Positions 3,727-57,714 of a stretch of DNA of 64,000 bases are shown here, piece by piece. The notes beneath the pieces are model-generated. The model saw only the letters and a program-made list of their open reading frames with translations, searched no databases and was not told the DNA's origin. Origin of the DNA: Candidatus Liptonbacteria bacterium. GTDB taxonomy: Bacteria; Patescibacteriota; Minisyncoccia; UBA6257; 2-01-FULL-56-20. Made by a program: the position numbers and the translations under genes. How positions within the stretch are numbered: position 1 is the stretch's first letter; every line of letters starts with the position of its first letter. Where the stretch lies: contig JAHFLL010000001.1 in the NCBI GenBank assembly GCA_023244895.1, forward strand, positions 268,009 through 332,008, read 5' to 3'.

Positions 3727-4083
3727 TTCGGTAATTCGTAAGCCGGATTCTGTGCCTCCGAAAAATCGGAGCGGTAATCATTTCTCTGGACCCTCGATTA
3801 CTCTCGGGTTCTTGCGGCACAAACCATTGCTTACGCAATGGAGTACGACCTTGCACCCAGTAAGGATTTAGCCGTTTCACTCCTGCTTTTTTGTCCCTAT
3901 GGCAGGATTAAGCCAACTAGCTTGGGATCGGGCTCTCTTGGCTCTTTCGGACCAAGACGTCACTGCTCGCACCTCTCGCATTACTGCGGTCCGCCGTTAG
4001 CGGATACGCTTGTCTCGCGAAGCGAGACTGGTGTCCGGACTTTCCTCTCCTTGAAAAATCAAAGAGCGATTACCTGAATTACG
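3726..4083 (-). ncRNA. rnpB: RNase P RNA (bacterial type A-like)
   Basis: Minus strand carries CR-I GGAAAGUCCGGAC (complement of 4033-4045) and CR-IV ACAGAAUCCGGCUUAC (complement of ~3737-3755). P1 pairs GUAAUUC with GAAUUAC. Ends are approximate. Confidence 0.75.
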
Positions 4084-4089
4084 TTCCTA

Positions 4090-4118
4090 ATTATATCAAA
4101 ACGTAAGGTTTTGGTCAA
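4090..4118 (-). promoter_or_regulatory. sigma70-like promoter for rnpB (TTGACC-17-TATAAT)
   Basis: Minus-strand TTGACC (complement of 4113-4118), 17 nt spacer, then TATAAT (complement of 4090-4095). The -35 overlaps the terminator hairpin of the upstream mgtC-like gene. Confidence 0.6.
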
Positions 4119-4153
4119 TTCGACCAAACCCTTCTTTCTGAGTTGGTGGCTCG

Positions 4154-4591
4154 TCAGTTATTTTTCCGAACCTCCCTTATTTCCGTCTTGCGCAATATAT
4201 AAAGCAATACCGCGAAAAGTATTCCCGAGAAAGCCGCAAATTCTATCAGACCCACGCCGGCTAGTACGCCCACTGCGGAGGTGGTCCAGATGACGGCGGC
4301 AGTAGTCAATCCATGCGCGCGTTTATCGTCCTTAATAATCGTACCAGCTCCTAAAAATCCAATACCCACGACAATATTCGCGATAACTGCTAGAGCAGAT
4401 CCGGAAGCGGAAGAGGCTCCAATAATGCCGGGCAGGCTCAAGCCGACCATTGCGAAAATAACCGACCCGCCCGCCACCATCATGCCGGTGCGCACGCCCG
4501 CTTCTTTTCCAACTAGTTCACGCTCCAGGCCCATAAGGGCTCCGAGTGCGAGCGCCACCAGTAGGCGAATGACCATTTGAGAAAATTCCAT
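4154..4591 (-). CDS. MgtC/SapB family membrane protein
   Basis: LALGALMGLERE motif and multiple TM segments. Start chosen at the internal Met (MEFSQMV) rather than the longest ORF. Confidence 0.65.
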   Translation of the reverse strand: MEFSQMVIRLLVALALGALMGLERELVGKEAGVRTGMMVAGGSVIFAMVGLSLPGIIGASSASGSALAVIANIVVGIGFLGAGTIIKDDKRAHGLTTAAVIWTTSAVGVLAGVGLIEFAAFSGILFAVLLYILRKTEIREVRKNN

Positions 4592-4662
4592 TGTTGCTTT
4601 ATTATAGCATACGTGATTTAAACGATCTCGGGCGGTAGGCAAGACTTTAAAAAATATAAAAA

Positions 4663-6066
4663 ATGAGAATAAATATAGGAGACATCTCGGGCAAGGTGGG
4701 TGAGCAGGTTGAGCTGAAGGGCTGGGTGCATGCCCGGCGCGACCACGGCAAGTTGGTTTTTATAGACCTAAGAGATAGAAGCGGATTGGCGCAGATAGTG
4801 CTTACGCCACAGATAGAAGGCGCCTCCGACCTACGCTTGGAATATGTGGTGGGAATAACGGGCAAGGTAAAAGAGCGCCCTGCCAGCATGGTAAACAAAG
4901 ACCAGCTAAACGGAGCTTATGAGGTAGAAGCCAGCACGCTTCAAATACTCAACAAATCCGAGCCAGTTCCTTTTCCGATAGATACGGATGGTTATGAGCA
5001 AAGTGATGACCTGAGAATGAAGTACCGGTATTTGGATTTGAGGCGTGAGCGCATGCAACGCAATCTGAAGGCCAAGCATGAGGCGTCTCAATTTATTCGC
5101 AACTATCTGACCGAAAAAGGATTTTGGGAGGTAGAAACTCCAATTTTAACCAAATCCACTCCGGAGGGAGCGAGGGACTTTCTGGTGCCGTCTCGCCTTC
5201 AAAAAGGTAAGTTTTACGCTCTGCCTCAATCGCCTCAGCAATATAAACAGATGCTCATGATCGCGGGAGTGGAAAGATATTTTCAGATAGCGCGCTGTTT
5301 TAGAGATGAGGACCCGCGCACCGATCGTGCCTATGGGGAATTTACCCAGTTGGATTTGGAAATGTCTTTCGCGACCCAGGAAGACATTATGCAATTAGCG
5401 GAAGATTTATTTACCAAACTAACCCACGCGATCTTCCCTGAGAAGAAGATATCCCAAACACCCTGGCCAAGACTTTCCCATAAGGATGCGATGGAAAAAT
5501 ATGGAACGGATAAGCCGGACTTAAGAAAGGATAAAAACGACCCGAACGAACTGGCTTTTGCCTGGACCGTGGATTTTCCGCTCTTTACCGAGCAGACCGC
5601 AGACGACTTTTTCCATGGCTCCGGTTCTGCCAAGTTCGCGCCTTCGCACCATATGTTTACGGCGCCCCATCCGGATGATGTCGCGCTTTTAGACACAGAC
5701 CCCATGAAAGTTAGAGGGCTCCAGCACGACATGGTTTTGAATGGTTACGAGGTTGGTGGGGGAAGTGTGCGTATCCATCAGCGCGAGGTACAGGAAAAAA
5801 TATTTGACCTGATTGGGTTCAGCGCGGAGCAGAAAAAACAGTTTGATTATTTCTTGAGTGCTTTTACCTATGGCGTGCCCCCGCACGGAGGCATAGCTCC
5901 GGGATTGGATAGGTTCTTATTCGCCATCTTGGGCGAAAAGAGCATTCGTGAAATAATTGCTTTTCCGGCCACCTCCGGTGGTCAGACGGCGGTTATGACT
6001 GCGCCCTCGGAAGTCGACCCGAAGCAGTTAAAAGAGCTAGGCATAGAAATAAGTAAAAAAGAGTAA
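4663..6066 (+). CDS. aspS: Aspartate--tRNA ligase, class II, short form lacking the GAD insertion
   Basis: Motifs FRDEDPRTDR, GGGSVRIHQRE and GVPPHGGIAPGLDRF. N-terminal OB fold. Confidence 0.8.
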   Translation: MRINIGDISGKVGEQVELKGWVHARRDHGKLVFIDLRDRSGLAQIVLTPQIEGASDLRLEYVVGITGKVKERPASMVNKDQLNGAYEVEASTLQILNKSEPVPFPIDTDGYEQSDDLRMKYRYLDLRRERMQRNLKAKHEASQFIRNYLTEKGFWEVETPILTKSTPEGARDFLVPSRLQKGKFYALPQSPQQYKQMLMIAGVERYFQIARCFRDEDPRTDRAYGEFTQLDLEMSFATQEDIMQLAEDLFTKLTHAIFPEKKISQTPWPRLSHKDAMEKYGTDKPDLRKDKNDPNELAFAWTVDFPLFTEQTADDFFHGSGSAKFAPSHHMFTAPHPDDVALLDTDPMKVRGLQHDMVLNGYEVGGGSVRIHQREVQEKIFDLIGFSAEQKKQFDYFLSAFTYGVPPHGGIAPGLDRFLFAILGEKSIREIIAFPATSGGQTAVMTAPSEVDPKQLKELGIEISKKE

Positions 6067-7941: not shown

Positions 7942-7964
7942 ATTCCCATTTTAGACACGTCCGA

Positions 7965-8500
7965 CAACTTGTCTAGTGAAGTCGGGTTCACTAGATATTA
8001 AACGAGAACAGACCGACACGCATCGGGCATGTGGGTCTGTTTCTTCTTGCTACTGCTCTTGCGTCAGAGTCCCAGGAGTCGTCGCACGACTCCGCGAGGA
8101 TCCCCGTCGCCTTTCTGAAAAAACTCGGTTGCCCGGACGGGGAGCTTGTCGTACTCCGCGTAAGACATCGAGCTTGTCATCAGCGTCGGTGTGTCGGGGC
8201 TCTCCGCTTGAACTACGGCGACCACCGTATCTCCGTAGGGTCCGGGCGGCATCCGGTAGTCCACGATTGCGAGCTTGAATGGCTGGCCCGCCGCTACTGC
8301 CTCACGGATCTTGGAGATGGCCTCCGTCGCCCCGCCGGCCGTGACGATCTCGATCTCCGCACCGATGGTCTCGAGAAGTGCCCTCATCCCCACGAGAGCG
8401 ATTGGCGTATCATCTACCACGAGAATGCGTCTTATCATGGTTCCTGCCCCCCCTCTCTCTTCTGGAGGCCATTATATTATCCATGTCTTTTAAGTCAATT
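7965..8500. other. GC-rich island A (about 65% GC), carries the orphan receiver gene
   Basis: Sharp compositional shift relative to flanks. Own SD and terminator (CAGACC...GGTCTG plus U-run). Confidence 0.5.
8064..8438 (-). CDS. Single-domain response regulator (CheY-like receiver), inside GC-rich island A
   Basis: Motifs LVVDD and AIVDYRMP. About 65% GC. SD-like GAGGGGGGG sits upstream of the ATG. Confidence 0.6.
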   Translation of the reverse strand: MIRRILVVDDTPIALVGMRALLETIGAEIEIVTAGGATEAISKIREAVAAGQPFKLAIVDYRMPPGPYGDTVVAVVQAESPDTPTLMTSSMSYAEYDKLPVRATEFFQKGDGDPRGVVRRLLGL

Positions 8501-8512
8501 ATAAAAAAGGAC

Positions 8513-8548
8513 TTGACATTATATTTACTACGCTATACTATAGTATAG
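8513..8548 (+). promoter_or_regulatory. Promoter plus operator module 1: TTGACA-17-TACTAT overlapping the 16 bp perfect palindrome CTATACTATAGTATAG
   Basis: TTGACA at 8513-8518, -10 at 8536-8541, palindrome at 8533-8548. The ATG at 8550 implies a leaderless mRNA. Confidence 0.6.
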
Positions 8549-8549
8549 T

Positions 8550-8900
8550 ATGCAAAATAAAAAAATGAACAAGAAAGAAAAGTGGCAGAACGAGGATAGT
8601 GAGGAGTTATTTAAAGCCGTGCTTGGTCTTAAAAATACGTCCGAAGCTAGGGCTTTTTTTAGAGATCTTTTAACCGAGAAGGAGATTTTGGAGTTCGGTC
8701 AGCGCTGGAAGGTGGCCAGGATGTTGTCCGAGAGTGTTCCTTATTCAGAAATAGGGCATAGAACCTGGATGAGTCCCAGAACCATAGCGCGTATTCAAAA
8801 ATGGCTTAAAAGCGGGAGGGGCGGTTACCGCTTAGCAATTCATCGGTTGGAGCAGAAAGCGGGTAAAAGGCCCGTTGCTGGCAAGAAAAGAAACAGATAG
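8550..8900 (+). CDS. YerC/YecD family TrpR-like DNA-binding protein
   Basis: Motifs FFRDLLTEKEILEFGQRWKVARML, PRTIARIQKWL and SGRGGYRL match the YerC/TrpR-like pattern. Confidence 0.75.
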   Translation: MQNKKMNKKEKWQNEDSEELFKAVLGLKNTSEARAFFRDLLTEKEILEFGQRWKVARMLSESVPYSEIGHRTWMSPRTIARIQKWLKSGRGGYRLAIHRLEQKAGKRPVAGKKRNR

Positions 8901-8963
8901 GCAAGGGGGTTGGGTAGAGGAATAAGTAAGCACCCCCCTTGCTTCCATTGAATATTTAAACCC

Positions 8964-8998
8964 TTGACTTTTTTATCCACCGCTATACTATAGTATAG
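8964..8998 (+). promoter_or_regulatory. Promoter plus operator module 2: TTGACT-16-TACTAT overlapping a second copy of the same 16 bp palindrome
   Basis: TTGACT at 8964-8969 and palindrome at 8983-8998. The shared 19-mer CGCTATACTATAGTATAGT matches module 1. Confidence 0.55.
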
Positions 8999-9004
8999 TG
9001 CACT

Positions 9005-9100
9005 ATCGGGGGTGACTACTGGGAGAGAGTAGAGAAGAGTAGAGGATAAGAGAGAAGAAGAGGAAGATAAGAAAGAAGAGAGAGGGTGGCGTGGGGTGGA
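9005..9100 (+). repeat. Polypurine (GA-rich) tract of about 95 nt
   Basis: Plus strand is almost entirely G/A (gagagagtagagaagagtagaggataagagagaagaagagg...). The two minus-strand ORFs across it are low-complexity artefacts. Confidence 0.7.
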
Positions 9101-9182
9101 ACACATTAGGTAGATGAGTGGGGTGAAATTGTAATGGGAGTACGAGCCGAGGGGCACTAGATTGGTTAAACAAGAGAACAAT

Positions 9183-9275
9183 ATGACTAAACAAAATATA
9201 AATTTTAATACGAGCGCCGGGCATCACAACCAACTCTTCCGAGAAGAGATTGGTTGTGGTTTTTATTTTTCTTAA
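9183..9275 (+). CDS. Candidate 30-aa leader peptide ORF running through a terminator hairpin
   Basis: ATG...TAA encodes MTKQNINFNTSAGHHNQLFREEIGCGFYFS. No SD, like host genes. Weak evidence. Confidence 0.2.
   Translation: MTKQNINFNTSAGHHNQLFREEIGCGFYFS
9225..9270 (+). terminator. Strong rho-independent terminator
   Basis: Hairpin CACAACCAACTCTTC / GAAGAGATTGGTTGTG followed by TTTTTATTTTT. Confidence 0.65.
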
Positions 9276-9310
9276 TAAGAAACAACACTCATTCTCCTCT
9301 CGGAAGTTCC

Positions 9311-9356
9311 GAGGGGTGTCGGCAAACCGAGCCCCTCACGAGAGGGGCTCTTTGAT
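9311..9356 (+). promoter_or_regulatory. Alternative-hairpin (attenuator-like) element upstream of the GCS2-like gene
   Basis: GAGGGGT (9311-9317), GCCCCTC (9331-9337) and GAGGGGC (9342-9348). The middle segment can pair with either flank. The perfect 9 bp stem GAGCCCCTC/GAGGGGCTC is followed by TTTG. Confidence 0.4.
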
Positions 9357-9382
9357 ATTGGCAGAACAAGAGGGAGGACGAT

Positions 9383-10396
9383 ATGAACGCTAAGGACCTG
9401 GTCCAGTACTTCACGCGCGGACTGAACGGGCTCTATGAGCTCGGAACAACAATCGGGATTGAGGTTGAGACCCAGTTCGTGGATCTGGGTGGTCGTGCCA
9501 TCCGGACGGAAATCGCCCAGCAGATCTTCCGGGGTTTCGTCGCTAGCGGTTGGAGGGTCGTGACGCGCAAGGGCGAGTTGCTGACGGAATTAATCTCTCC
9601 CGGGAATGATAGGTTGCTCTACGAGCTTGGCCGGCACAATTTGGAAATCAGTGCCGCGCCACGTCCCGCCGACGCGGTCGTCCCTGCCGTCCTGCGCTTA
9701 CTGGCGGAACTTTACGGCCAGGCTTGGAACTTGGGCGTTCGTCCGCTTCTTGCTCCGATCTTGGAGACGGAAGAGGACCTCCTGGTCGTGCCGGACGAAC
9801 GGGACGCGCAATGGGTAAGGACAGACGGGCGAAGCGCGCTCAATAATCTAACCAGATGCTCGGCGGTGCAGTTTACTATCGATGTGCCGCTCAAGGACGC
9901 GATACGCTGCGTCAATGTTCTGAACGAGATGAAATACTCCTTCCTGAACGAGTATCCCCAGGAGGAGTTGTGGCGGCGCTATATCAAGGAATCAGCCGCC
10001 ACCTATTCTCCCAGCCGCTACGGCGGTCCGGATCGCTTCGCCGATCTGGATGATTACTGCGCGAAACTGGCCGAGCATGGCGTGGTGCGAGACGGTAGGG
10101 TGGTGCCGTGCGAGTCGGCGGGGGAGGTGGATATCCCGCTCTTCCTGCGTTCAGTCTGGTGGTACTTCAGATTGAAGCGTTATGGTCCGAAGCTTTGCCT
10201 GGAAGTGCGCCCGTTCGCGCGGGGCAGGGATTCGAAAATCCAGGAGGATCTGGATCGGGTGCTGCAAATTCTGGGCATCTCCGGTCGGGAGCGCATGGAG
10301 CGAACGGTCGCCAGCCTTCGGGACAGTCTTGAGACACTGAAGTTCCAGGCGGTCCGCCGGCCCGTGTCTCTCGATTGGCCTTCGGGTGGTCACTAA
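9383..10396 (+). CDS. Carboxylate-amine ligase (GCS2/YbdK-like) family protein, GC-rich island B
   Basis: N-terminal TIGIEVETQFVD resembles the YbdK GIELEMQ motif. About 62% GC. Strong SD GAGGGAGGA 5 nt before the ATG. Confidence 0.4.
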   Translation: MNAKDLVQYFTRGLNGLYELGTTIGIEVETQFVDLGGRAIRTEIAQQIFRGFVASGWRVVTRKGELLTELISPGNDRLLYELGRHNLEISAAPRPADAVVPAVLRLLAELYGQAWNLGVRPLLAPILETEEDLLVVPDERDAQWVRTDGRSALNNLTRCSAVQFTIDVPLKDAIRCVNVLNEMKYSFLNEYPQEELWRRYIKESAATYSPSRYGGPDRFADLDDYCAKLAEHGVVRDGRVVPCESAGEVDIPLFLRSVWWYFRLKRYGPKLCLEVRPFARGRDSKIQEDLDRVLQILGISGRERMERTVASLRDSLETLKFQAVRRPVSLDWPSGGH

Positions 10397-10408
10397 ATCG
10401 CAAAGTAG

Positions 10409-10445
10409 TTGGGGCCGGACATCGTAGTCCGGCCCAATTTTTATA
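10409..10445 (+). terminator. Rho-independent terminator
   Basis: TTGGGGCCGGAC-ATCGTA-GTCCGGCCCAA followed by TTTTT. Confidence 0.65.
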
Positions 10446-10514
10446 TAGAAATAAATCAAAACCACCGTCCATCTGGGCGAAGTCCGTTACTAATGTGTCC
10501 TGTTCTGATCTCCG

Positions 10515-11237
10515 TTAAGATTGTTTCTTGAATGCTTCCACGATCTTGTCTAAATCTCCGTCCAAAATCTTCTCTATGTTATGAAACTTTTTACCGATGC
10601 GGTGGTCCGTAATCCTGTCTTCCGGGAAGTTGTAGGTACGAATCTTTTCGGAGCGGTCTGCACTACCAATTTGCTCGTTACGGTTCAGACCTGATTTTTT
10701 TGCCTCTTCTTCCATTTGAGCTTCGTGCAGCTTGGCCCGCAAAATTGTCATGGCGCGTTCGCGGTTGCCATGCTGGGAGCGTTCTACCCGGGAAGATATT
10801 ACGATGCCAGACGGTTTGTGAAGCACGCGTACCGCGCTTTCAATTTTATTCACATTCTGTCCGCCCGGCCCGCCTCCACGCGAGAAAGTTACTTCCAGAT
10901 CGCCTTCGTTTATTTGGACCTCTTTGGCTTCTACCTCCGGCATAATCGCGACGGATGCGGTAGAGGTGTGTACCCGGCCGGCTTTCTCGGTCTTAGGCAC
11001 TCTTTGTACGCGGTGCACGCCGGACTCCTGTTTTAGAGCGTCGTAGCAACCCTCGCCGGATATACCTGCCACAAAAGATTTATATCCGTATAAGGAAGTT
11101 TCGTTACTGTCTATTATGCTAAAGCCCCAGCCGCGCCTTTGGGCATACCTTTGATACATGCGCGCCAAGTCGCCCGCGAAGATGGCGGCTTCGTCTCCGC
11201 CCGCACCGGCTCTGATTTCTAAAATAATCTTATTCAT
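10515..11237 (-). CDS. prfA: Class I peptide chain release factor (RF1-like) lacking N-terminal domain 1
   Basis: GGQ motif SRGGGPGGQNVNK, RVQRVPKTEKAGRVHTS and an RF1-like C-terminus. The protein starts at RF1 domain 2 (ILEIRAGAGGDEA). An in-frame TAA sits 2 codons upstream of the ATG. Confidence 0.75.
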   Translation of the reverse strand: MNKIILEIRAGAGGDEAAIFAGDLARMYQRYAQRRGWGFSIIDSNETSLYGYKSFVAGISGEGCYDALKQESGVHRVQRVPKTEKAGRVHTSTASVAIMPEVEAKEVQINEGDLEVTFSRGGGPGGQNVNKIESAVRVLHKPSGIVISSRVERSQHGNRERAMTILRAKLHEAQMEEEAKKSGLNRNEQIGSADRSEKIRTYNFPEDRITDHRIGKKFHNIEKILDGDLDKIVEAFKKQS

Positions 11238-11246
11238 AGATGTTTA

Positions 11247-11276
11247 TGCAGAGATTCTAACAGAAGGAGTCGGGAG
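11247..11276 (-). promoter_or_regulatory. sigma70-like promoter TTGAAT-17-TAGAAT for the RF gene
   Basis: Minus-strand TTGAATctcccgactccttctgtTAGAAT, followed by a 16 nt leader before the ATG. Confidence 0.5.
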
Positions 11277-11285
11277 ATTCAATCT

Positions 11286-11314
11286 GATTGACTCGTTTTT
11301 GTCTCGGAGGCATA
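11286..11314 (+). promoter_or_regulatory. Divergent promoter TTGACT-17-CATACT for the island C small peptide gene
   Basis: ttgactcgtttttgtctcggaggcatact, back-to-back with the RF promoter. Confidence 0.45.
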
Positions 11315-11337
11315 CTCTTTGTCAGGAGGGCAGGGCG

Positions 11338-11484
11338 ATGATACCTCACCCGGCGGTAGTATTCGGGCTTGATGCTGTTACGGTGCGACAGTTGATCGTG
11401 GCCGGCATCGCGGTCTGCGTCGTGTCCGTCGCCCTCGGAGTCGCGGGCGCGGCCGGACTCGTCTACCTCGTTTCTTTGATCTAG
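11338..11484 (+). CDS. 48-aa hydrophobic (single-TM) peptide, GC-rich island C
   Basis: Peptide MIPHPAVVFGLDAVTVRQLIVAGIAVCVVSVALGVAGAAGLVYLVSLI. SD CAGGAGGG 8 nt upstream. Confidence 0.4.
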   Translation: MIPHPAVVFGLDAVTVRQLIVAGIAVCVVSVALGVAGAAGLVYLVSLI

Positions 11485-11866
11485 AGCTCGGACAGGCGCG
11501 CATGGGGTATCCTACGCGCCACGGGATGTGTGTCCCATCCGGGGCGGGGATGCTCTGGTCGTGCTGTTCAGTGTTGCCTCTGGGTAAGCGGCATGCTTTG
11601 CCGCTCGGTCTTTGGGCAACATTGCTCAGTTGCGGACGACTGGAGCATCTCCGTGTTTTCACAAGTCTTGATTCGGTGGGCGGTCTTGCTACTGGCAGGC
11701 ATCACCGCTTGAGGCGTGTGACCTCAGCCGAATCATGGGGCGCGGTCTGGTGGATTACCCAGGCTAGGCAGGCGGGGCAATGAAGCCAGCCGCGCCCTCT
11801 CATAGCGACCTCCGGAACCTACGGGAACCGGGGGTTTTGACTTATTTAGGGTCATATTCCAGCCAC

Positions 11867-11894
11867 TTGACATGGGCTGTGGATATGCTATAAT
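11867..11894 (+). promoter_or_regulatory. Consensus sigma70 promoter TTGACA-16-TATAAT
   Basis: ttgacatgggctgtggatatgcTATAAT, a perfect match to both hexamers. Confidence 0.6.
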
Positions 11895-11900
11895 GCATCT

Positions 11901-12500
11901 CAAGTGGGCGAGTGGGGATTCTTGGTCGGCGTCGGCTCTACGGAGCTACTGGCCACCTTCCCTCCCGAGCCTGCGGCGCTTTCGCCGCGTCGACTCGAGC
12001 GAGCGGGGGATTTCTTGGGCAGATTCGTCTGACCCACCCCCTCGTCCACAACCCTGCCGGCGGGTTCCACCGGTAATCGTTCTTGCGGGGCACAGCGCCG
12101 TCGGCACCGCGCACCGCCCCAAGACCATACGGGCCTGACCACATGGCCCACATTGGAAGGGAGGAAGAAAGTTCCGAAACCGAGACGTAGACGTTTGTGG
12201 AGGAGGGAAGACCAAATCTACAGATGGGTCTCGGGATGGCTGATCCCCATCCGGACGCGCTTCAAGGGATAAAATCCTAGGGCTAATAACCCGAAGCGTG
12301 AAAGTAGGATCGCAGGTAAGTAGGCGACCCAAAGCAGGGCGCCACCAACGGAGGTAACCACTCGGGAGTTCGCACGACCTTCGGGCCGGCGACGAGACGA
12401 CGGGGCACGCGCGACACGCATCCGCCCCAAACCCGAGAGAGCGATACTTCCAATCGGCGCCCTGCTATAGTCAACGGCCCCAGAGCATCAAAGCTCGGGG
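11901..12500 (+). ncRNA. Candidate GC-rich structured non-coding RNA of unknown family (about 600 nt)
   Basis: Lies downstream of the consensus promoter. No plausible ORF on either strand, only overlapping Arg/Pro-rich artefacts. The 5' GGGGAUUCUUGGUCGGCGUCGG loosely resembles a tmRNA 5' end, but no tag ORF or T-arm was found. Confidence 0.25.
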
Positions 12501-12581
12501 TCGTTTGCGTTTTGGGGATATGGTTCGCCCTCCCTTTCCTTTCCTGCTAGAATAACTTTTACTGGAAGATATAAATAAGCC

Positions 12582-13082
12582 ATGTTGCATAAACGCCCGG
12601 GCGACAAAAATGTTTATTTAAAAGTGGGCGCCTTAGTTCAAAAAAGAGGCGAGCTTTTACTAATCAAGGAGCGGAGTAATTGGAAAAAGAAATATCTTTG
12701 GAACACCATCAAGGGTAGTTTCGAGGGGGGAAAAGACAAAACCATAATGGCCGCGGTAGCACGGGAAGCCTGGGAAGAGGCGCGGGTTAAGATAAAAATC
12801 ACCCATCTCCAAAGCGTGAGTCATGCATATCAATATCAGAAAACTTTTATTCAATTCAATTTTGTGGCGGAACTTGTAAGTGGTGACGCAAGACTGCCGC
12901 TTCCAAAAGAGCAGCGTCTTTTAGATGAAGACATAGTTGAGGTGCGCTGGTTTAGTAGAAAGGAGGTTCAGAAACTGAAGGCCAGGGACATGATTAATAA
13001 CCGTGCCTGGGTTGCGGTTCAGGATTGGCTGGCTGGCAAGAGATTTCCCTTGGTCGCCATCCGAGAGTTGAATAAGCTTTAA
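12582..13082 (+). CDS. NUDIX-like hydrolase
   Basis: Degenerate Nudix box GSFEGGKDKTIMAAVAREAWEEARV. Confidence 0.45.
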   Translation: MLHKRPGDKNVYLKVGALVQKRGELLLIKERSNWKKKYLWNTIKGSFEGGKDKTIMAAVAREAWEEARVKIKITHLQSVSHAYQYQKTFIQFNFVAELVSGDARLPLPKEQRLLDEDIVEVRWFSRKEVQKLKARDMINNRAWVAVQDWLAGKRFPLVAIRELNKL

Positions 13083-13083: not shown

Positions 13084-14079
13084 ATGAAGAGCCCTTTAGT
13101 CAGCAGAATTTTAAAGAAGCTCGCCAAGCGGGCGGGCGTAAAAGTTAATCTGGAGCCGAACTGGGGTTTCGTTGGCCAGGTGGTTTTACCAGATGGTAGG
13201 AAAAGATATTTTAGAAATACTAGTTTAGATTTGAATCCGCTGGGCGCGTCGGAAGTTGCAAGAGATAAAGACTACTCCAATTATTTCATGGGTAAGATGG
13301 GCTACCCCATTGTACCCGGGAAATCTTTCTTTTCGGATAAGTTGTCTACCGCCTTAAAATCTAAACGAAATATAGATGCGGGCTGGCGTTACGCTCAAAA
13401 AATAGGTTTGCCGGTTATCGTAAAGCCAAACAGCCGCAGTCAGGGCGTGGGCGTGAGTAAGGTTTCAAACAAAAAAGATTTTTACGCCGCTGCTAAGTTT
13501 GTTTTTAAAAAAGACAACGTGATGCTGGTGCAGCGCGCGCTTACGGGCAAGGATTATCGCATCGTGGTTTTAGATAAGGAAGTCATCTCCGCTTACGAGC
13601 GCCTGCCGCTTACGGTTGTGGGGGACGGCAAAAGTAGTATTTCTAAACTACTGGGCTTGCTACAAAAGAAATTTACGAGGGAGGGGAGAGACACCATGAT
13701 TAATCCGGAAGATTTTCGGATTAAGGCCAAGCTTCGGAGGCAGGGGCTAAAAATGAATTTTGTACCCAAGAAAAATGAGAAAATAACTTTATTGGACAAT
13801 GCCAACCTATCGGCTGGGGGCATGGCGCTCGATGTCACCGAAATTATTCATCCGGGTTTTAAGAAAATTGCGATTAAGCTCACCCGGGATATGGGCCTGC
13901 GCTATTGCGGAGTGGATTTGATGGTGGTGGGTGACATAGCTAAAGCTCCTCTAAAATACTGGGTGCTGGAGATAAACGCGGCAGCAGGATTGGATCACTA
14001 TGTTTCTTTGGGTAAAAAACAAGCTCGCATTGTGAATGACCTGTATCTCAAAGTATTGCGCGCGATGAAAAAATCCTAA
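13084..14079 (+). CDS. ATP-grasp family ligase (RimK/GshB/cyanophycin-synthetase-like)
   Basis: Motifs NLSAGG, VIVKPNSRSQGVGV and DYRIVVLD, typical of the ATP-grasp fold. Confidence 0.55.
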   Translation: MKSPLVSRILKKLAKRAGVKVNLEPNWGFVGQVVLPDGRKRYFRNTSLDLNPLGASEVARDKDYSNYFMGKMGYPIVPGKSFFSDKLSTALKSKRNIDAGWRYAQKIGLPVIVKPNSRSQGVGVSKVSNKKDFYAAAKFVFKKDNVMLVQRALTGKDYRIVVLDKEVISAYERLPLTVVGDGKSSISKLLGLLQKKFTREGRDTMINPEDFRIKAKLRRQGLKMNFVPKKNEKITLLDNANLSAGGMALDVTEIIHPGFKKIAIKLTRDMGLRYCGVDLMVVGDIAKAPLKYWVLEINAAAGLDHYVSLGKKQARIVNDLYLKVLRAMKKS

Positions 14080-14119: not shown

Positions 14120-14374
14120 CTACTTAGAAGCTTTCTTGGCGCGCACCTTCTTGGTCTTCTTGGGCGCGGTAGAAGCGCTCGCTCGGCGAGCCTTAAACTT
14201 CTCAACTCTTCCGGCGGTATCAATAAGCTTGTTCTCGCCAGTGTAGAAAGGATGGCAATTACTGCATATTTCCACGCGTATCTCTTCTTTAGTGGCTCCG
14301 GTTGTGACCGTGTGGCCGCAAGCGCAGATTAGCTTTGCTTTAGGAAAATATTTAGGATGAATTTCGTTTTTCAT
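14120..14374 (-). CDS. rpmE: 50S ribosomal protein L31
   Basis: Motifs IHPKY, C..C...C..H and [15 protein letters not shown]. Confidence 0.85.
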
Positions 14375-14474
14375 AACGGGAGGATTTTCGCTGATTTTTG
14401 GTGAAAAGTCAAATCGGGCTGGCTTAAATAAAACATCTCCGCGCCGGACCCCCTATGGGTGCGGCGCGGTTGGG

Positions 14475-14726
14475 CTACTGGATCGCGCTCAGGATGGCAT
14501 CCAGGTCGACTGGCCGCATAGAGAGCAGATCGTTGCACGTGGGGTGGGTCCGATGGGCGTTTGCCGCGCACTCAATGCGGACCCCGACCGCGCCCGCCAT
14601 AACCCGGGTGCCGTCCTTCCTGATGAGGTAGACGGCAGTTTCGTCGCCGTCTATCCCGACGACGAGAGCTGCGACTGGGCCACCAGCCACGGCCTCCACA
14701 TCCGTACGACTCACGGTCATGTCCAT
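14475..14726 (-). CDS. 83-aa hypothetical protein, GC-rich island D
   Basis: SD AGGAGG 6 nt upstream. Own promoter-like TTGATT-17-TAATCT. Terminator hairpin CCGCGCCG...CGGCGCGG plus U-run. Confidence 0.4.
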   Translation of the reverse strand: MDMTVSRTDVEAVAGGPVAALVVGIDGDETAVYLIRKDGTRVMAGAVGVRIECAANAHRTHPTCNDLLSMRPVDLDAILSAIQ

Positions 14727-14881
14727 CTGGGCCTCCTGCTGGCTACAGATTAGAATCTAGAGTTCTTTAAATCAATAAAAAATTGTCCCCAAAAGGTTTG
14801 TAAAAATTCAGAACGGCTCCGGGCGCTTGTGCGCGGAGCCGTCTTGGCTTACTGAGCCCGGTCACCCCCATCCAGGTTGTC

Positions 14882-15055
14882 CTATGGCCTTGCGAGCCTT
14901 AGGAACCCCCTGATCAGTTCCTGTACCACATCGTTGCAGAGGTACAGGAACAGGCCACCGATCAGGCAGATCACGAGAATGGCTGCCGCAACCGTGAGGT
15001 GCTTGGCGGTGCGGGTTATCGTTATTCTGTCTTCGTCCGACATGTGCACGGACAT
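14882..15055 (-). CDS. 57-aa single-TM small protein, GC-rich island D (below the 60 aa ORF cutoff)
   Basis: Peptide MSVHMSDEDRITITRTAKHLTVAAAILVICLIGGLFLYLCNDVVQELIRGFLRLARP. SD GGAGGG 4-5 nt upstream. Promoter-like TTGACG-17-CATAAT. Terminator hairpin plus U-run. Confidence 0.4.
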   Translation of the reverse strand: MSVHMSDEDRITITRTAKHLTVAAAILVICLIGGLFLYLCNDVVQELIRGFLRLARP

Positions 15056-15146
15056 GCAACCCTCCTGCTGATTGAAGATTATGTTGAAATTTAGGCATGC
15101 GTCAAATAGGGGCCTAAAAGCCCTTTCACTCAGGGCGTAATCAGAC

Positions 15147-15175
15147 TTGACTTTGGGGTTCGGTCCGTCTAGAAT
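15147..15175 (+). promoter_or_regulatory. 16S rRNA promoter TTGACT-17-TAGAAT
   Basis: ttgactttggggttcggtccgtctagaat, about 300 nt upstream of the 16S 5' end. Confidence 0.6.
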
Positions 15176-15471
15176 ATACCTCGCGTCTGATATGGGCGGT
15201 CCCTGCTGAACCGACAGCTTTTTGATAATTGAGACCCGTCATCTTTCGACAATTCAAGATGATCCATCTTGAACGGAGTCGAAAGATAAAAACAATAAAT
15301 CAGAAATAAGAGTTTTCTAGTTGTCCCAATGACAAACCCGATGAATGTACTTTACAGACATCGGTTCCGATCACGGTTTTTCACGCAAGTGAACTTTGCG
15401 AATTTGCATGGTTACTCCATTTGCAAATTCGCGTAGTCATTTTATCTTCGGATAAAATGGGTCGCGATCTT

Positions 15472-17009
<1,538 letters not shown>

Positions 17010-17156: not shown

Positions 17157-17558
17157 ATGGAACCAGCCAAAGTGTTAATTATTGAAGACGACCACTTCTT
17201 ATCCTCTATTTTAAAGAGCAAATTAGAGAAGGAGGGGTTTGAGGTTCACCAGGCTTTTGATGGAGATGAGGGCTTGGCTATACTCCAGACTTTCAAGCCG
17301 AATCTGATTCTGCTGGATTTGATTATGCCGAAATTGTCCGGCTTTGATGTTTTGCAGCAAGTTTCGGTTGACCCGGAGCTTAGTCAGATACCAATAATGG
17401 TCGCGTCCAACTTAGGGCAGGACAGCGACATCCAGAAGGCAAAATCACTGGGCGCGATAGATTATTACGTGAAAGTGCGCACCTCTATTGACGAACTGGC
17501 TCAATTAGTGAAAAATGTGATAAACCAAAACGCAGCCAGTCAACCGAATCAAACTTAA
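17157..17558 (+). CDS. Single-domain response regulator (CheY-like receiver)
   Basis: Motifs KVLIIEDD, LLDLIMPKLSG and a conserved K. A -10 TACAAT sits 9 nt before the ATG. Confidence 0.75.
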   Translation: MEPAKVLIIEDDHFLSSILKSKLEKEGFEVHQAFDGDEGLAILQTFKPNLILLDLIMPKLSGFDVLQQVSVDPELSQIPIMVASNLGQDSDIQKAKSLGAIDYYVKVRTSIDELAQLVKNVINQNAASQPNQT

Positions 17559-17562: not shown

Positions 17563-17871
17563 ATGATAAAAGAAGAAATTTTGCAGAAAATAAAACCGGG
17601 CGCCAAAGTTAAGGTTTGGGAAGGCGCGGCCACCGCTCCTTTTCAGGGCTTGGTTATCGCGCGCAAGCATGGCTCCGAAAAAGGAGCGACCTTCACGGTG
17701 CGCACAGTGCTCGCCGGCGTAGGCGTGGAAAAAGTTTATCCCATAAATACTCCTATTATTAGTAAGGTGGATATCGTCTCCAGCCCCAAGAAGATTCATC
17801 GTTCCAAGTTGTACTTCGTGCGCAAGGCTTCCGGCGCTAAAGTGAGAAGGAAGTTGGGAGTATCTGTTTAG
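17563..17871 (+). CDS. rplS: 50S ribosomal protein L19
   Basis: Motifs PGAKVKVWEG, TFTVR, GVGVEKVYPINTP and KLYFVR. Confidence 0.85.
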   Translation: MIKEEILQKIKPGAKVKVWEGAATAPFQGLVIARKHGSEKGATFTVRTVLAGVGVEKVYPINTPIISKVDIVSSPKKIHRSKLYFVRKASGAKVRRKLGVSV

Positions 17872-17916: not shown

Positions 17917-17947
17917 AAACCCCGCCCGAGCGGGGTTTGTGGTTTGA
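17917..17947 (+). terminator. Rho-independent terminator after rplS
   Basis: AAACCCCGCCCGAGCGGGGTTTGTGGTTTG. Confidence 0.7.
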
Positions 17948-17984
17948 AAAACATTGATAGCTAGCTTATAATCCCGAACGTAAC

Positions 17985-18067
17985 GCGCGGGTGGCGAAAT
18001 GGCAGACGCACTACCTTGAGGTGGTAGCGCTCGTAAGGGCGTGGAGGTTCGAATCCTCTCCCGCGCA
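17985..18067 (+). tRNA. tRNA-Leu (anticodon GAG), type II with a long variable arm
   Basis: Acceptor GCGCGGG/CCCGCGC, anticodon loop TTGAGGT, T-arm GGAGGTTCGAATCCTCT. Confidence 0.85.
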
Positions 18068-18090
18068 CAATCTAATAAATAGTCACAACC

Positions 18091-20709: not shown

Positions 20710-21405
20710 ATGGACATAAAAGGCAAGACAGTAATTATCACGGGAGGCAGTTCTGGTTTGGGTAGAGCACTGGCAGAGGGTTTTAAAAATGCCGGGGCGC
20801 ACGTTTTAATTTGCAGTAACAACCAAAAGGAGCTTCGAGAAGTAATAGTGGAGGCGGGAGTAGATGGCTTATTGTGCGATATAACTGATCCAGTCCAAGT
20901 GCAAGGCTTTGCCAAATCCGCGCATTCCAAATTGAAGAAAGTAGATATCTGGGTAAATAACGCAGGCGTAGGCAACCACCATACGGAGATAGAGCTTCAA
21001 GACCCCGCCTTCGTCCACAAGATGATGGAGGTTAATTTTTTTGGGATGATGTATGGCTCTCAAGAGGCGTTAAAGATTATGAAGAAGCAGAAGCAGGGAA
21101 CCATAATCAATATTCTTTCCATAAGAGCCATGAAAGCGCATCCCTTGTCCGCGGGCTACTCCGCGACAAAATGGGCGGCACGGGGCTTCGCGGAAGCGTT
21201 ACGAGTTGCGGGAGAAGAAAGCGGGGTGTCTGTCATAAATATTTATCCAACCGGTATGAAAACGGAATTTTACAACATCAATAAGCCAGACGATTATAGC
21301 CGTTTTATGGAACCAAGAGAGGTTGCGCGGCGGGTTATAGAAAATTTGGAACTTAGCAATCCGGAAGATGACCTGATTGTTGAAAAAAACAGTCTGTATT
21401 CCTGA
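20710..21405 (+). CDS. SDR family oxidoreductase
   Basis: TGGSSGLGRALA and YSATKWAARGFAEAL (YxxxK). Confidence 0.8.
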   Translation: MDIKGKTVIITGGSSGLGRALAEGFKNAGAHVLICSNNQKELREVIVEAGVDGLLCDITDPVQVQGFAKSAHSKLKKVDIWVNNAGVGNHHTEIELQDPAFVHKMMEVNFFGMMYGSQEALKIMKKQKQGTIINILSIRAMKAHPLSAGYSATKWAARGFAEALRVAGEESGVSVINIYPTGMKTEFYNINKPDDYSRFMEPREVARRVIENLELSNPEDDLIVEKNSLYS

Positions 21406-21420
21406 GTATCTACGTTCGGT

Positions 21421-21468
21421 AAAAACGGGAACAGGACGCGCAACGGGCGCATCCTGTCTTGTTCTGTT
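21421..21468. terminator. Bidirectional terminator between SDR and island E
   Basis: ACAGGACGCGC-AACGG-GCGCATCCTGT with T/A runs on both sides. Confidence 0.5.
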
Positions 21469-21471
21469 GCC

Positions 21472-21846
21472 CTAGGTGGGCGTCTCCTCTGGGAAGAGGA
21501 GTGTGCGCGTAGTGCATTTGTAAGTGTCCGCGCATCGCATTCCAACCTTACCCGCTTCTTGGAGCTTGGCTTGGATCTGCTTGTCCACTACGGCCCTTTG
21601 TGTCGCGTCGAGATCCTGCCATCCCGAACTAGACAAGGCCGCAATCATCGCATCGGCCACGACTTCGCCCATCAGGTGGCAATCTGATGATCCGAGTCCG
21701 TGGACCAGTCTTGATACCACTCCGGTGCGATAGCTGAACCTCGCTCCGATTCTTGACTTGGCAACGCTGAGTGAGCCACCTGACATCTCGTACGCAGTCC
21801 GGGCAGTTTCCACGAGTTCTTGCATTATCGCAATCGGTTCGGTCAC
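21472..21846 (-). CDS. 124-aa hypothetical protein (GTG start), GC-rich island E
   Basis: High-GC ORF with SD-like GGAAGGAAGG upstream. No recognisable domain. Confidence 0.35.
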   Translation of the reverse strand: MTEPIAIMQELVETARTAYEMSGGSLSVAKSRIGARFSYRTGVVSRLVHGLGSSDCHLMGEVVADAMIAALSSSGWQDLDATQRAVVDKQIQAKLQEAGKVGMRCADTYKCTTRTLLFPEETPT

Positions 21847-21973
21847 GGCGACGCCTTCCTTCCTGATTGAGTGGGAGAGCTGAAAACAATTTTCTTAAAT
21901 TATTACCCTCCGGTCAATGTGTATAACTTGAATTTGGCTGGAAACCTGCTAGATTTTTTACCAGAGGTGACTC

Positions 21974-22183
21974 ATGGCGAAACAGTGGAAACTGTCTGCG
22001 GATGGAATGCCGCAGAGGCCCGCTCGGCCCCGCAGACCGGATGCGCCCGAAGTCCCCGCGACCCTAGGTGGCAGCTACCTCGCTTCCACCGCAGGCCTCG
22101 GAACCACCAGTCCTCCGCCGAAGTTGCGAGGACGCGCACGATACGGTAAAGGCGCGTCATTCCGAGGGTGGGAGGCGCAGTAG
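21974..22183 (+). CDS. 69-aa Pro/Arg-rich small protein, GC-rich island E (tentative)
   Basis: SD AGAGGTG 5 nt before the ATG. Promoter-like TTGAAT-16-TAGATT at ~21929. Terminator at 22201-22233. Composition is low-complexity, so it may instead be an ncRNA. Confidence 0.25.
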   Translation: MAKQWKLSADGMPQRPARPRRPDAPEVPATLGGSYLASTAGLGTTSPPPKLRGRARYGKGASFRGWEAQ

Positions 22184-22200
22184 AACGGGAAACGAAGATT

Positions 22201-22233
22201 GGCGGCGTCGCGAGTGACGCCGCCACGCTTTTT
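22201..22233 (+). terminator. Rho-independent terminator
   Basis: GGCGGCGTCGCGAGTGACGCCGCC followed by ACGCTTTTT. Confidence 0.65.
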
Positions 22234-22249
22234 ATTATAGAATTCACTC

Positions 22250-28116: not shown

Positions 28117-29004
28117 TTAGGGGTCGGGTATATACGTCCCGCAGTTTGGACATTTGTACCCGTGCCCATTGCGGTACATGACCGCGTCGCAATCATCGCA
28201 CTTCCTATCTCCGTGCACGGGCTCTTTCTCTCCGTTTACGCCCGCGCAGAAACGAGCTTCGGGAGACAGGAATTCGATCGCCAGCCACCGGAAGACGTAG
28301 TCCACGATGGACTTCGCGAACCGAATCTTCGGATGTCTGGTCATCCCCGACGGTTCGAAACGCATGTGGCTGAACCTGTCTACCAGCGTCTCGAGAGGTA
28401 CGCCGTACTGCAGGGCAATTGTGATTGCACTGGCAAACGCGTCCGCGAAGCCCGAGATCATCGAGTCCCCGTTGGCCATCACGAGGAACAAGTCGGCGGG
28501 CTTGCCGTCTTCGTATCGCCCGACGGTTACGTAGCCCTGGTGGCCACCGATGTCGAACTTGTGGGAGAGGGCGCGTCTGTCTTCAGGTGGTCTGCGGCGC
28601 TCAACATCCATCCGTCTGGATGCCTTGGCGAGATCGCCAAACTTCAGATCCAGCCACCGGAAGATGTAGTCCGCGATGGATTTTGCGAATCCAATTCGCG
28701 GATGCTTGGTCATCCCGGATGGCTCGAAGCGCATGTGGCTGAACCTGTCTACCAGCGTCTCGAGAGGGACGCCGTACTGTAGGCAGTACGACACCGCCCG
28801 CGCGAATGCGTCCGCGAAGCCGGAGAGGGTTGACCCCTCCTTAGCCATCACGAGGAACAGCTCTCCGAGAGTGCCGTCCTCGTAGAAGCCTACCGTGATG
28901 TAGACTTTGTGCCCACCGATTTTAACTCGGTGCACGAGCGCGTTGCGCTCGTCCGGTAGCGTCCGCCGGAGGGGCGGGTTTACTAACGAGCTGCTAGCGC
29001 TCAT
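28117..29004 (-). CDS. Tandem-duplicated (~130 aa x2) domain protein resembling the class II ribonucleotide reductase C-terminal (TSCPD-like) domain, with C-terminal zinc ribbon. GC-rich island F.
   Basis: Two repeats share ...GGH.GY.TVG.YEDG...LFLVMA...SGFADAFA.A....LQYGVPLETLVDRFSHMRFEPSGMT.HP.I.FAKSI.DY.FRWL. The tail carries CDDCD...CPNCG. The antisense 241-aa ORF is rejected. Confidence 0.4.
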   Translation of the reverse strand: MSASSSLVNPPLRRTLPDERNALVHRVKIGGHKVYITVGFYEDGTLGELFLVMAKEGSTLSGFADAFARAVSYCLQYGVPLETLVDRFSHMRFEPSGMTKHPRIGFAKSIADYIFRWLDLKFGDLAKASRRMDVERRRPPEDRRALSHKFDIGGHQGYVTVGRYEDGKPADLFLVMANGDSMISGFADAFASAITIALQYGVPLETLVDRFSHMRFEPSGMTRHPKIRFAKSIVDYVFRWLAIEFLSPEARFCAGVNGEKEPVHGDRKCDDCDAVMYRNGHGYKCPNCGTYIPDP

Positions 29005-45501: not shown

Positions 45502-46056
45502 ATGTTGGAATCAATAATAAAAGAATTAGAGGGCAAGCTAAATCAGGTAACGGGCTTTTTCCAGTCCGAATTGCAGGGTGTGCGCAGTAATCGTCCCTCG
45601 GTGGGACTTTTGGAAGATATTAAGGTGGAATATTACGGTCAGATAATGCAAATAAAACAACTGGCGTCCCTTTCTATCCGCCCGCCCAGAGACATTGAGG
45701 TCAGTATTTGGGATAAGGGCGCGGTGGGCGCGGTAGCCAAAGCGATTGAAACCGCCAAAGCGGGATTTTCGGTTTCAAACGACGGTAACATCGTGCGTGT
45801 TTCCTTACCGCCCTTGACCGACGAACGACGCGCGGAAATGACCAAATTGGTTAAAAGAATGTCGGAAGACGCGCGCATATCAATCCGGGGCGAAAGAGAT
45901 GAGGCGAATAAAAAAGTTAAAGCAGGGGAGGACTCCGGGCAGATAACCGAGGACCAGGCCTTTAAAGGCAAGGAACAGATCCAAAAGAGTACGGAAGCGG
46001 CTAATAAGCAGGTAGAGAACTTATTGAATAGCAAGATAGCGGAACTTAGCGAATAG
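45502..46056 (+). CDS. frr: Ribosome recycling factor
   Basis: VRSNRPSVGLLEDIKVEYYG and ISIRGERDEANKK. Confidence 0.85.
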   Translation: MLESIIKELEGKLNQVTGFFQSELQGVRSNRPSVGLLEDIKVEYYGQIMQIKQLASLSIRPPRDIEVSIWDKGAVGAVAKAIETAKAGFSVSNDGNIVRVSLPPLTDERRAEMTKLVKRMSEDARISIRGERDEANKKVKAGEDSGQITEDQAFKGKEQIQKSTEAANKQVENLLNSKIAELSE

Positions 46057-56869: not shown

Positions 56870-56957
56870 CTAGTAACCAGTAGTTAGTAGATAGAAGTTA
56901 GAAGTTAGAAGATAGAATGTAGAAGTTGGAATAAAGAGAGGGGACGGGAATGAGTAA

Positions 56958-56990
56958 TGGCCGAGCGCGATGTTTTGCGCTCGGCCATTG
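56958..56990. terminator. Bidirectional hairpin terminator
   Basis: GGCCGAGCGC-GATGTTTT-GCGCTCGGCC. Confidence 0.5.
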
Positions 56991-57012
56991 CCGTTCTCTT
57001 GCCGTCTTCCGT

Positions 57013-57516
57013 TTACCGCTGCTCGGCTGCGACAGGCGGCCAAGCGGGCGGGACGACCGGACGGACGGGCCGACCGGCTTCTTCCGCCAGGTAGTCCTTG
57101 AAGCTGATTCGACCGTCCTGAGCGGACGAGCGTCGCAGAGCAAAGTCGTACTCGCGCGCCCAGTCTACGACGGCGAAGAACTTGGCGGTGGCAGCCTTGA
57201 ATCTGGATTCGTAGGACCTGAGGTTGTCCTCCAGGGACTGGGTGTCCCAGATTTCCGACTCTGCCGCCGCGCGAAGCCGCTTCTGGAGGAGGCCGATGCC
57301 CTTACTCCAGGCCTCACACTCGCGTGCGAGCTTGACGAGTCTCGCGTCCATGTCCTCGTCCGAGAGGAGTTGGTGCACCACCGCCATGGTCTTCTTGATG
57401 AACCGACTACGCACCGCGCTGGCCGCAATGGACCAGGTTATGGCGCCGGTCAAGATGGAGAAAAAGACAAGGAGCGCCAGCTGAACCTCACGCGTGATGT
57501 CCATATCCAAGCTCAT
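57013..57516 (-). CDS. 167-aa membrane-anchored coiled-coil protein, GC-rich island G
   Basis: N-terminal TM, then charged helical region. SD CGGGGGT 5 nt upstream. About 62% GC. Confidence 0.4.
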   Translation of the reverse strand: MSLDMDITREVQLALLVFFSILTGAITWSIAASAVRSRFIKKTMAVVHQLLSDEDMDARLVKLARECEAWSKGIGLLQKRLRAAAESEIWDTQSLEDNLRSYESRFKAATAKFFAVVDWAREYDFALRRSSAQDGRISFKDYLAEEAGRPVRPVVPPAWPPVAAEQR

Positions 57517-57714
57517 ATGTACCCCCGAGACACTCTTTGCTTGATTGCCATCCGGAGATTTGCTCCAGAGAGGGACGATTTGCGCCCCTAAAGAGTCTGG
57601 CCAAAGAATATATGTTTATTGAAAAATGTCAATGGTAACTGAGTCAATAAAGACAGCAAGCAGATTATTAATAATTGATTATTAATTACTGTTATAATAA
57701 GATGGTTCCGCGAT

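Follow-up and report, generated by a model that had tools for sequence, protein, structure and literature searches.

A release factor 1 gene without domain 1 in Candidatus Liptonbacteria and related Parcubacteria

The 64,000-nt stretch of Candidatus Liptonbacteria DNA analysed here (assembly GCA_023244895.1, contig JAHFLL010000001.1, positions 268,009 to 332,008; hereafter the window) carries on its minus strand, at 10515..11237, a gene for a peptide chain release factor that starts where domain 2 of its relatives starts. With a probability of roughly 85%, we regard this gene as the housekeeping release factor 1 (RF1) gene, prfA, in a naturally minimised form that is kept lineage-wide. The encoded protein of 240 amino acids (aa) comprises superdomain 2/4, which recognises the codon, and domain 3 with its GGQ motif. 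It is without domain 1, which to our knowledge virtually all RF1 and RF2 proteins characterised from bacteria and organelles possess.

Domain make-up and family assignment

The open reading frame (ORF) runs from an ATG start codon to a TAA stop codon, and its make-up was defined with Pfam and NCBIfam profiles and by alignment to proteins in the PDB. Here, residues 2-96 match Pfam PCRF at profile positions 100-194 of 194 only, while residues 105-213 match the RF-1 (GGQ) domain at positions 3-116 of 116. What is missing from the protein is RF1 domain 1, i.e., PCRF positions 1-99. In agreement with this, the protein aligns end to end to residues 86-318 of T. maritima RF1 and to residues 112-344 of E. 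coli RF1. An in-frame TAA stands two codons before the ATG (TAA ACA TCT ATG; 11244..11246, minus strand), and translation of 1.5 kb of upstream DNA gave nothing RF-like in any of the three frames. Moreover, the gene and its upstream region are 100% identical in two independent assemblies (Logan SRR14366791 and SRR14366796), so the short N-terminus does not come from a sequencing error. A preliminary description of this DNA had read the protein as domains 2-4 of an RF1-type class I release factor lacking all of domain 1, with its start at domain 2, a TAA two codons upstream, a GGQ motif, and a PKT tripeptide at the PxT position. All of these readings are borne out, and the in-frame upstream domain 1 that a sequence correction might have uncovered, and that would have spoken against them, was looked for and not found.

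The motifs for reading stop codons and for catalysis are in place. The PKT tripeptide, residues 81-83 (10989..10997, minus strand), takes the RF1 PxT 'anticodon' position and aligns to E. coli P188-A-T190, and the catalytic GGQ motif, residues 125-127 (10857..10865, minus strand), aligns to E. coli G233-G-Q235. The tip of helix α5, which in RF1 reads the first stop-codon base, is GAGGDEA at residues 11-17 (11187..11207, minus strand; E. coli G118-A124). When 79 short homologues were aligned with the RF1 proteins of T. thermophilus and E. coli, all 79 proved invariant at the positions of E. coli G118, G120, G121, E123, A124, P188, T190, and E191, and likewise at those of G194, R195, H197, T198, S199, G233-Q235, and the switch loop R303..R321. 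For the α5 tip, the invariant residues of the window protein are G11, G13, G14, E16, and A17. The family consensus reads G-x-G-G-D/E-E-A at this tip, followed by Q-R-x-P-x-T-E, G-R-x-H-T-S (GRVHTS in the window protein), and G-G-Q, with the switch loop conserved as R-S-E-K-I-R-T-Y-N-F-P-x-D-R-I-T-D-H-R. Within the PxT loop, P and T never change, and x is K in 42 homologues, A in 15, and V in 8; S also occurs.

Comparison with the RF1, RF2, and PrfH profiles left RF1 the best by far. In the NCBIfam ranking, RF1 came first (NF001859, 364.9 bits, profile positions 105-340 of 347), ahead of RF2 (235.4 bits), PrfH (81.2 bits), and ArfB (48.1 bits). RF1 thus outscores RF2 by 130 bits; the RF2 score falls short of the cutoff of 370 for model TIGR00020, and the tripeptide is PKT rather than SPF. 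The predicted fold points to the same family. An AlphaFold2 model built from 32 homologues reached a predicted local distance difference test (pLDDT) value of 82.5, and the top 26 Foldseek matches to it were all RF1 or the mitochondrial homologue mtRF1a. The model superposes on the compact crystal RF1 (1rq0_B; TMq 0.86, root mean square deviation of 2.1 Å over 238 columns), RF1 in complex with PrmC (2b3t_B; 0.84), and pre-accommodated ribosome-bound RF1 (6orl_A; 0.85).

Distribution, orthology, and loss of domain 1

A search of 5.8 billion protein sequences returned thousands of homologues, the best 120 of which are 233-279 aa long (238-250 aa in 113 of them) and 73-93% identical to the window protein. 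Their named sources are Candidatus Liptonbacteria, Wolfebacteria, Paceibacterota, and other Parcubacteria, and in public databases the short homologues go by 'peptide chain release factor 1' or 'PCRF domain-containing protein'. In GTDB, scanned with a single genome for each species, the short form was found in at least 334 species. Our locus comparisons use the best 80 of the 334 GTDB loci, with about 10 kb on each side of prfA, which extends the range to Harrison-, Jorgensen-, Brenner-, and Colwellbacteria. Nearly all 80 have an in-frame stop no more than about 30 codons upstream of the position of residue 1. The ribosomal protein L31 gene, rpmE, is found at most 10 kb from prfA in 56 of the 80 loci, and the majority of these 56 have it as the immediate upstream neighbour of prfA on the same strand. 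The gaps between the two genes range from 5 to 200 nt (the smallest being 5, 22, 35, and 39 nt), and in one further relative (L085) the genes overlap by 4 nt. Where rpmE directly abuts prfA, there is therefore no physical room for a domain 1 of 105 residues. Between the window and its nearest relative (L001), the RF1 proteins are 91% identical by pairwise alignment and 93% by BLAST, with a nonsynonymous divergence (dN) of 0.058 and saturated synonymous sites (dS). The gene is vertically inherited, conserved, and under strong purifying selection; with its occurrence in at least 334 species and its identity in independent assemblies, it is the intact stand-alone gene, and no pseudogene, that it had been taken for.

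The closest full-length RF1 is P0124, with 345 aa and 58% identity, and on its contig (L083) tsf and rpsB share a strand opposite to that of rpmE and the prfA that follows it. This tsf-rpsB/rpmE-prfA slot is common to genes for proteins of 345 aa (L083), 309 and 303 aa (L084 and L086), and 240 aa (L085). Judged by the rpmE-prfA slot that it shares with the 345-aa and 303-309-aa forms, the 240-aa gene is the ortholog of full-length prfA. The longer of these truncated forms belong to a second clade of short RF1, which includes Candidatus Portnoybacteria and in which proteins of 231-246 aa occur together with others of 299-309 aa. The latter match PCRF at positions 40-194, which leaves a helical stub of about 62 residues of domain 1. 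In a neighbour-joining tree of the 240 shared columns with bootstrap support, the clade of the window has short forms throughout (97%), a group of 299-309 aa encloses the 240-aa P0403 (96%), and other short groups are sister to a group of 302-307 aa. Comparison of the three forms shows a stepwise erosion of domain 1 in the Parcubacteria, from about 100 aa through a stub of about 62 aa to none, and the branching suggests that complete loss occurred several times independently.

Apparent RF1 proteins with a C-terminal extension and tandem release factors (P0121, P0125, P0135, and others) also turned up among the species representatives, and these were rejected as assembly duplications, cuts at contig ends, or read-through into prmC.

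Alternative explanations and termination without domain 1

A specialised paralogue, i.e., a PrfH- or ArfB-like factor for rescue or quality control beside a full-length RF1 elsewhere in the genome, is a quite improbable alternative. In its favour, the known domain-1-less homologues of class I release factors (PrfH, ArfB, and ICT1) are rescue factors (PMC6514570, PMC1586002), the absence of domain 1 is a PrfH trait that the 240-aa protein does have, and our searches covered loci rather than the whole genome. Yet the PrfH model (TIGR03072) gives 81.2 bits against a cutoff of 166.65, and the ArfB model (NF006718) 48.1 bits against 100, in a match confined to residues 105-139 in the GGQ region of a protein that has domain 2/4. 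The RF1 PxT loop is kept and every stop-codon-reading residue is invariant. Neither rtcB nor a repair gene is among the conserved neighbours in the gene tables of the short-prfA loci, which are instead rpmE, an SLT-like gene of 468 aa, and the L25 gene (rplY). Moreover, related lineages have their full-length prfA in the very rpmE-prfA slot that this gene takes, its evolution is slow (identity of 73-93% among the best 120 homologues across candidate phyla), and no second RF homologue was found in 1.1 Mb around these genes. The PrfH-like ribosome rescue at which the preliminary description had hinted is thus disfavoured by the scores (81 against 365 bits for RF1), the PxT loop, the missing rtcB neighbour, and the slot.

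Equally improbable, in our estimate, is that the short RF1 is the sole class I factor, being omnipotent (UGA as well as UAA and UAG) after the loss of RF2. By tblastn, no second RF homologue, whether RF2 or full-length RF1, was found in the 64-kb window or in about 1.03-1.07 Mb of related loci, but as about 1.5 RF2 genes are expected by chance in the DNA sampled, this zero means little. Similarly, the matches listed in searches for a Parcubacterial RF2 (best 120-150) were only RF1 or close relatives of the query, and a search of species representatives gave RF1 only. TGA is the rarest stop codon in the window, where crude ORF sets of about 70 have TAA 36-39, TAG 24-28, and TGA 7-9 times, so that TAG is about three times as frequent as TGA, and in related loci below 50% G+C the use of TAG equals or exceeds that of TGA. 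Set against this rarity, the share of ORFs ending in TGA climbs with G+C, from 12% in low-GC loci to 30% in high-GC loci, as in ordinary code-11 bacteria, and TGA is also the stop codon of 11 of the 80 short prfA genes. Since TGA is in normal use as a stop in the window and its relatives, and the recognition residues specific to RF1 have not changed, an RF2 is to be expected.

A shade less likely again is a split prfA, with a separate gene for domain 1 whose product would join the 240-aa protein in trans. As an autonomous helical bundle with a flexible attachment, domain 1 would suit such an arrangement, and the span searched for it was about 10 kb on either side of prfA in the 80 relatives. 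However, the N-terminal domains of E. coli RF1, P0124, and P0128, taken as tblastn queries, found no domain-1-like ORF in the window or in the 80 related loci, and no small helical gene is a conserved neighbour. A word-indexed search, insensitive for a fast-evolving domain, gave no scored match of a stand-alone domain 1 to residues 1-102 of P0124, the closest full-length protein. Moreover, the 62-aa stub intermediates and the repeated losses favour gradual erosion over fission. Finally, that the gene is a pseudogene or owes its short form to faulty assembly or annotation, as would be the case had insertion of the GC-rich, ORF-less stretch that abuts the 5' end of the gene in the window (island C) destroyed the 5' part of prfA, has a negligible probability and is refuted by the same short architecture in at least 334 species, most of them without the island, by rpmE abutting the start codon in many species, by strong purifying selection, and by the identical independent assemblies.

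As a housekeeping RF1, the 240-aa protein would bind the A site at UAA and UAG, open from its compact form, and place GGQ in the peptidyl-transferase centre, where peptidyl-tRNA would be hydrolysed as by any RF1. Without domain 1, it would make no contact to the N-terminal domain of uL11 and would not be recycled by RF3, and it would instead leave the ribosome spontaneously or during recycling by RRF and EF-G; an ordinary frr gene is present in the window at 45502..46056. The role of domain 1 beyond RF3 is debated, with docking to uL11 and the GTPase-associated centre, and effects on speed or accuracy, being considered. In E. coli termination complexes, domain 1 touches the N-terminal domain of uL11 at its proline-rich helix and also makes the bridge to RF3 domain 3 (PMC3677378). 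As PMC1586002 relates from Mora et al. 2003, deletion of domain 1 leaves codon specificity and in vitro release unchanged and abolishes the interplay with RF3, and the truncated RF1 works in vivo. Moreover, prfC was not found in small-genome bacteria (PMC1586002). The simplest inference would be that these Parcubacteria terminate without RF3. Going by the loss pattern, domain 1 would have been dispensable beforehand in these bacteria, most simply through the absence of RF3. Neither rplK (uL11) nor rplA (uL1) was found within the 1.14 Mb of the window and loci.

The wider translation apparatus of these bacteria is also reduced. The 16S rRNA of the window (15470..17009) ends ...GCGUGGACCAAUUAAAUUG, without the CCUCC anti-Shine-Dalgarno (anti-SD) sequence, with GGACCAAUUAAAUUG at its 3' end (16958-17009) in place of the usual GGAUCACCUCCUUA. 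CCTCC is missing, too, from 19 of 19 genuine 16S 3' ends in the short-prfA loci (L005-L080). An SD-like sequence is found in just 3 of 39 confident window genes, and a -10 box lies 7-16 nt before the ATG in many, which suggests that many of the window mRNAs may be leaderless or have a very short leader. Ribosomal reductions in the uL1-less subgroup of Parcubacteria were reportedly described by Brown et al. in 2015. The anti-SD-less Parcubacteria largely coincide with this uL1-less subgroup (Tsurumaki et al. 2022, PMC9297842), as set out in a paper that treats ribosomal proteins and rRNA and has 'release factor', 'L11', and 'termination' zero times each. The short RF1 may be a further trait of the uL1-less, anti-SD-less subgroup. 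We tentatively raise a larger proposal, which seems to us possible though not probable, of a coordinated rebuilding of termination and recycling in this subgroup, whereby RF3 and the RF-uL11 contact would be absent, RF2 would be trimmed likewise, and the repeated losses would mark an ancestral change that made domain 1 useless. If this is true, the clade would be a natural system for asking what domain 1 does.

Several points weigh against reading the gene as a housekeeping RF1 that terminates in this manner. The RF1 equivalog cutoffs (NF001859 and TIGR00019) are not reached, with 364.9 bits against 400 and 354.3 against 423.25, because the first 105 or so profile positions are unmatched. One upshot for annotation is that marker and completeness pipelines based on TIGR00019 may score such short genes as missing. 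Peptide release, codon specificity, and the promoter of the 240-aa RF1 are all properties that we infer from the sequence, and the promoter match (see below) is 9/12 only, with 91 such sites in the window on both strands. The search for a second prfA, a separate domain 1, and RF2 covered the window and the prfA-flanking loci. In the neighbour-joining tree, drawn from 240 columns, the deep nodes are weak (support 36-61%), and the exact number of losses is therefore uncertain. Moreover, many small-genome bacteria without RF3 retain domain 1, and because they do, RF3 loss alone is insufficient to explain the loss of domain 1; something beyond it must have changed in these bacteria.

The locus and comparison with known systems

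Directly before prfA, on the minus strand, is a sigma-70-like promoter candidate, TTGAAT-17-TAGAAT with TG before the -10 (11254..11282; -35 at 11282..11277, -10 at 11259..11254). It ends 16 nt before the ATG and would leave a leader of some 10 nt that has no Shine-Dalgarno sequence, and prfA would here probably be transcribed from it as a short-leader mRNA, which fits an organism whose 16S rRNA is without the anti-SD. The consensus-like promoter claimed in the preliminary description is therefore present in its letters, whereas its standing is weakened in that 9/12 matches are common; a promoter of prfA's own is plausible, though not significant alone. The divergent promoter claimed alongside it does exist, as a weak plus-strand TTGACT-17-CATACT that starts at 11288.

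Further upstream, rpmE (14120..14374, minus strand) is the ancestral upstream operon partner of prfA by the gene table and synteny with L001. The two are separated by a 2.9-kb insertion found only in the window genome and its closest relative, and made up of island C together with a Nudix gene (12582..13082, plus strand) and an ATP-grasp gene (13084..14079, plus strand). That prfA has a promoter-like site of its own would follow from this insertion having cut it from rpmE. Relative to L001, the content between rpmE and prfA differs in the window, and about 2.5 kb is extra downstream of prfA (about 8000-10500). This extra segment carries a Trp-repressor-like gene (8550..8900) and a 337-aa ORF (9383-10396, plus strand; 60% G+C, no Pfam match) that is convergent to prfA. 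Between the convergent genes is a G+C-rich hairpin (10412..10435) with a T-run on the plus strand only, which makes it a clear terminator for the plus-strand gene and a possible one for prfA.

Island C itself (11300-12570) is 1.27 kb long with about 60% G+C in a window of 48% G+C, and has no credible ORF, no Pfam match, and no Rfam match at E<=1. Its folding z-scores are -3.9 to -5.3 on both strands, the plus strand being more stable, and it contains a perfect sigma-70 consensus, TTGACA-16-(TG)TATAAT (11867..11894, plus strand). A weakly colinear counterpart is found only in L001 (about 4100-5400). In the latter, a short degenerate copy of the prfA 5' end lies at 5459-5500, about 50-90 nt upstream of prfA (aagataattctagaaatcagggcgggcgcgggc against aagattattttagaaatcagagccggtgcgggc), and looks like a scar of the rearrangement by which rpmE and prfA came to flank the GC-rich stretch. 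The idea that island C is functionally linked to prfA did not hold up, as the GC-rich upstream stretch is part of the 2.9-kb insertion and occurs only in the window and L001. With no Rfam match, no repeats, and no relation to other islands, we regard its adjacency to prfA as incidental.

Four further GC-rich, ORF-less stretches are found in the window (7944-8470, 14380-15070, 21400-22240, and 56900-57600). Three of them have, at one edge, an inward promoter-like site with 10-11 of 12 matches (8498..8471, 15105..15078, and 57632..57605, each on the minus strand), and equally strong sites precede the RNase P RNA (4118..4090), the 16S rRNA (15147..15175), and the tRNA-Leu (17944..17972). The stretches have no Rfam match, are mutually unrelated, and are absent from the 80 related loci; they may be RNAs of a new type or insertion remnants. 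The RNase P RNA (3727-4082, minus strand) is a divergent class A with 103 bits against an Rfam gathering threshold of 100, and its promoter at 4118..4090 is an 11/12 match with TG. The 16S rRNA gene has no 23S gene after it, and is followed by a response-regulator gene (17157..17558), rplS (17563..17871), and tRNA-Leu (17985..18068). Elsewhere in the window, a 295-aa ORF of 59% G+C (28117-29004, minus strand) carries two TSCPD domains as well as a tandem duplication of 319 nt within it, with 73% identity between the copies.

Among known systems, the window protein resembles canonical RF1 (E. coli P0A7I0, T. maritima 1RQ0, and T. thermophilus 4V63), with about 47-50% identity over domains 2-4, the same PxT, GGQ, α5 tip, GRxHTS, and switch loop, the compact fold (TMq 0.86), and the rpmE-prfA order as it is found in related bacteria of the candidate phyla radiation (CPR). 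Unlike canonical RF1, it is without the domain 1 of about 105 residues and ends about 12-14 residues before the RF1 proteins of E. coli and Thermus. Engineered, N-terminally truncated E. coli RF1 and RF2 (Mora, Zavialov, Ehrenberg, and Buckingham 2003, as given in PMC1586002) likewise consist of domains 2-4 only; they show codon-specific release and in vivo function, but neither stimulate RF3 nor are recycled by it. However, these are laboratory deletions that slow growth, whereas the window form is natural, fixed in hundreds of species, and apparently arisen repeatedly. Domain 1 is, in the laboratory, dispensable for catalysis and costly for growth, and the natural clade shows that evolution can remove this cost, with the intermediates and the apparent independent losses offering a comparative handle on what compensates for domain 1.

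The likeness to PrfH (RFH) lies in the missing domain 1, the GGQ motif, a domain-2-like module, and a length of 200-230 aa in PrfH. In contrast, the codon-recognition loop of PrfH is altered, and PrfH always comes together with rtcB and has a sporadic distribution that stems from horizontal transfer (PMC6514570). ArfB (YaeJ) and ICT1 also have a GGQ domain that works without domain 1, but ArfB has no domain 2/4 and puts a basic C-terminal tail into the empty mRNA channel. A survey of release-factor diversity gives bacteria only RF1/RF2, ArfB, and PrfH (PMC6514570), and in the searchable full-text literature, including PMC6514570, PMC9297842, and PMC11665869, we did not find a housekeeping RF1 without domain 1 described for CPR bacteria. 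The family and the mechanism are thus familiar, while the fixed natural architecture, its intermediates, and its apparent recurrence look undescribed. The closest parallel in kind is with the reductions of the uL1-less, anti-SD-less Parcubacteria, where a peripheral and normally conserved part of translation is likewise lost, and with the short RF1 a translation factor joins the list of trimmed ribosome components that define the CPR/Patescibacteria.

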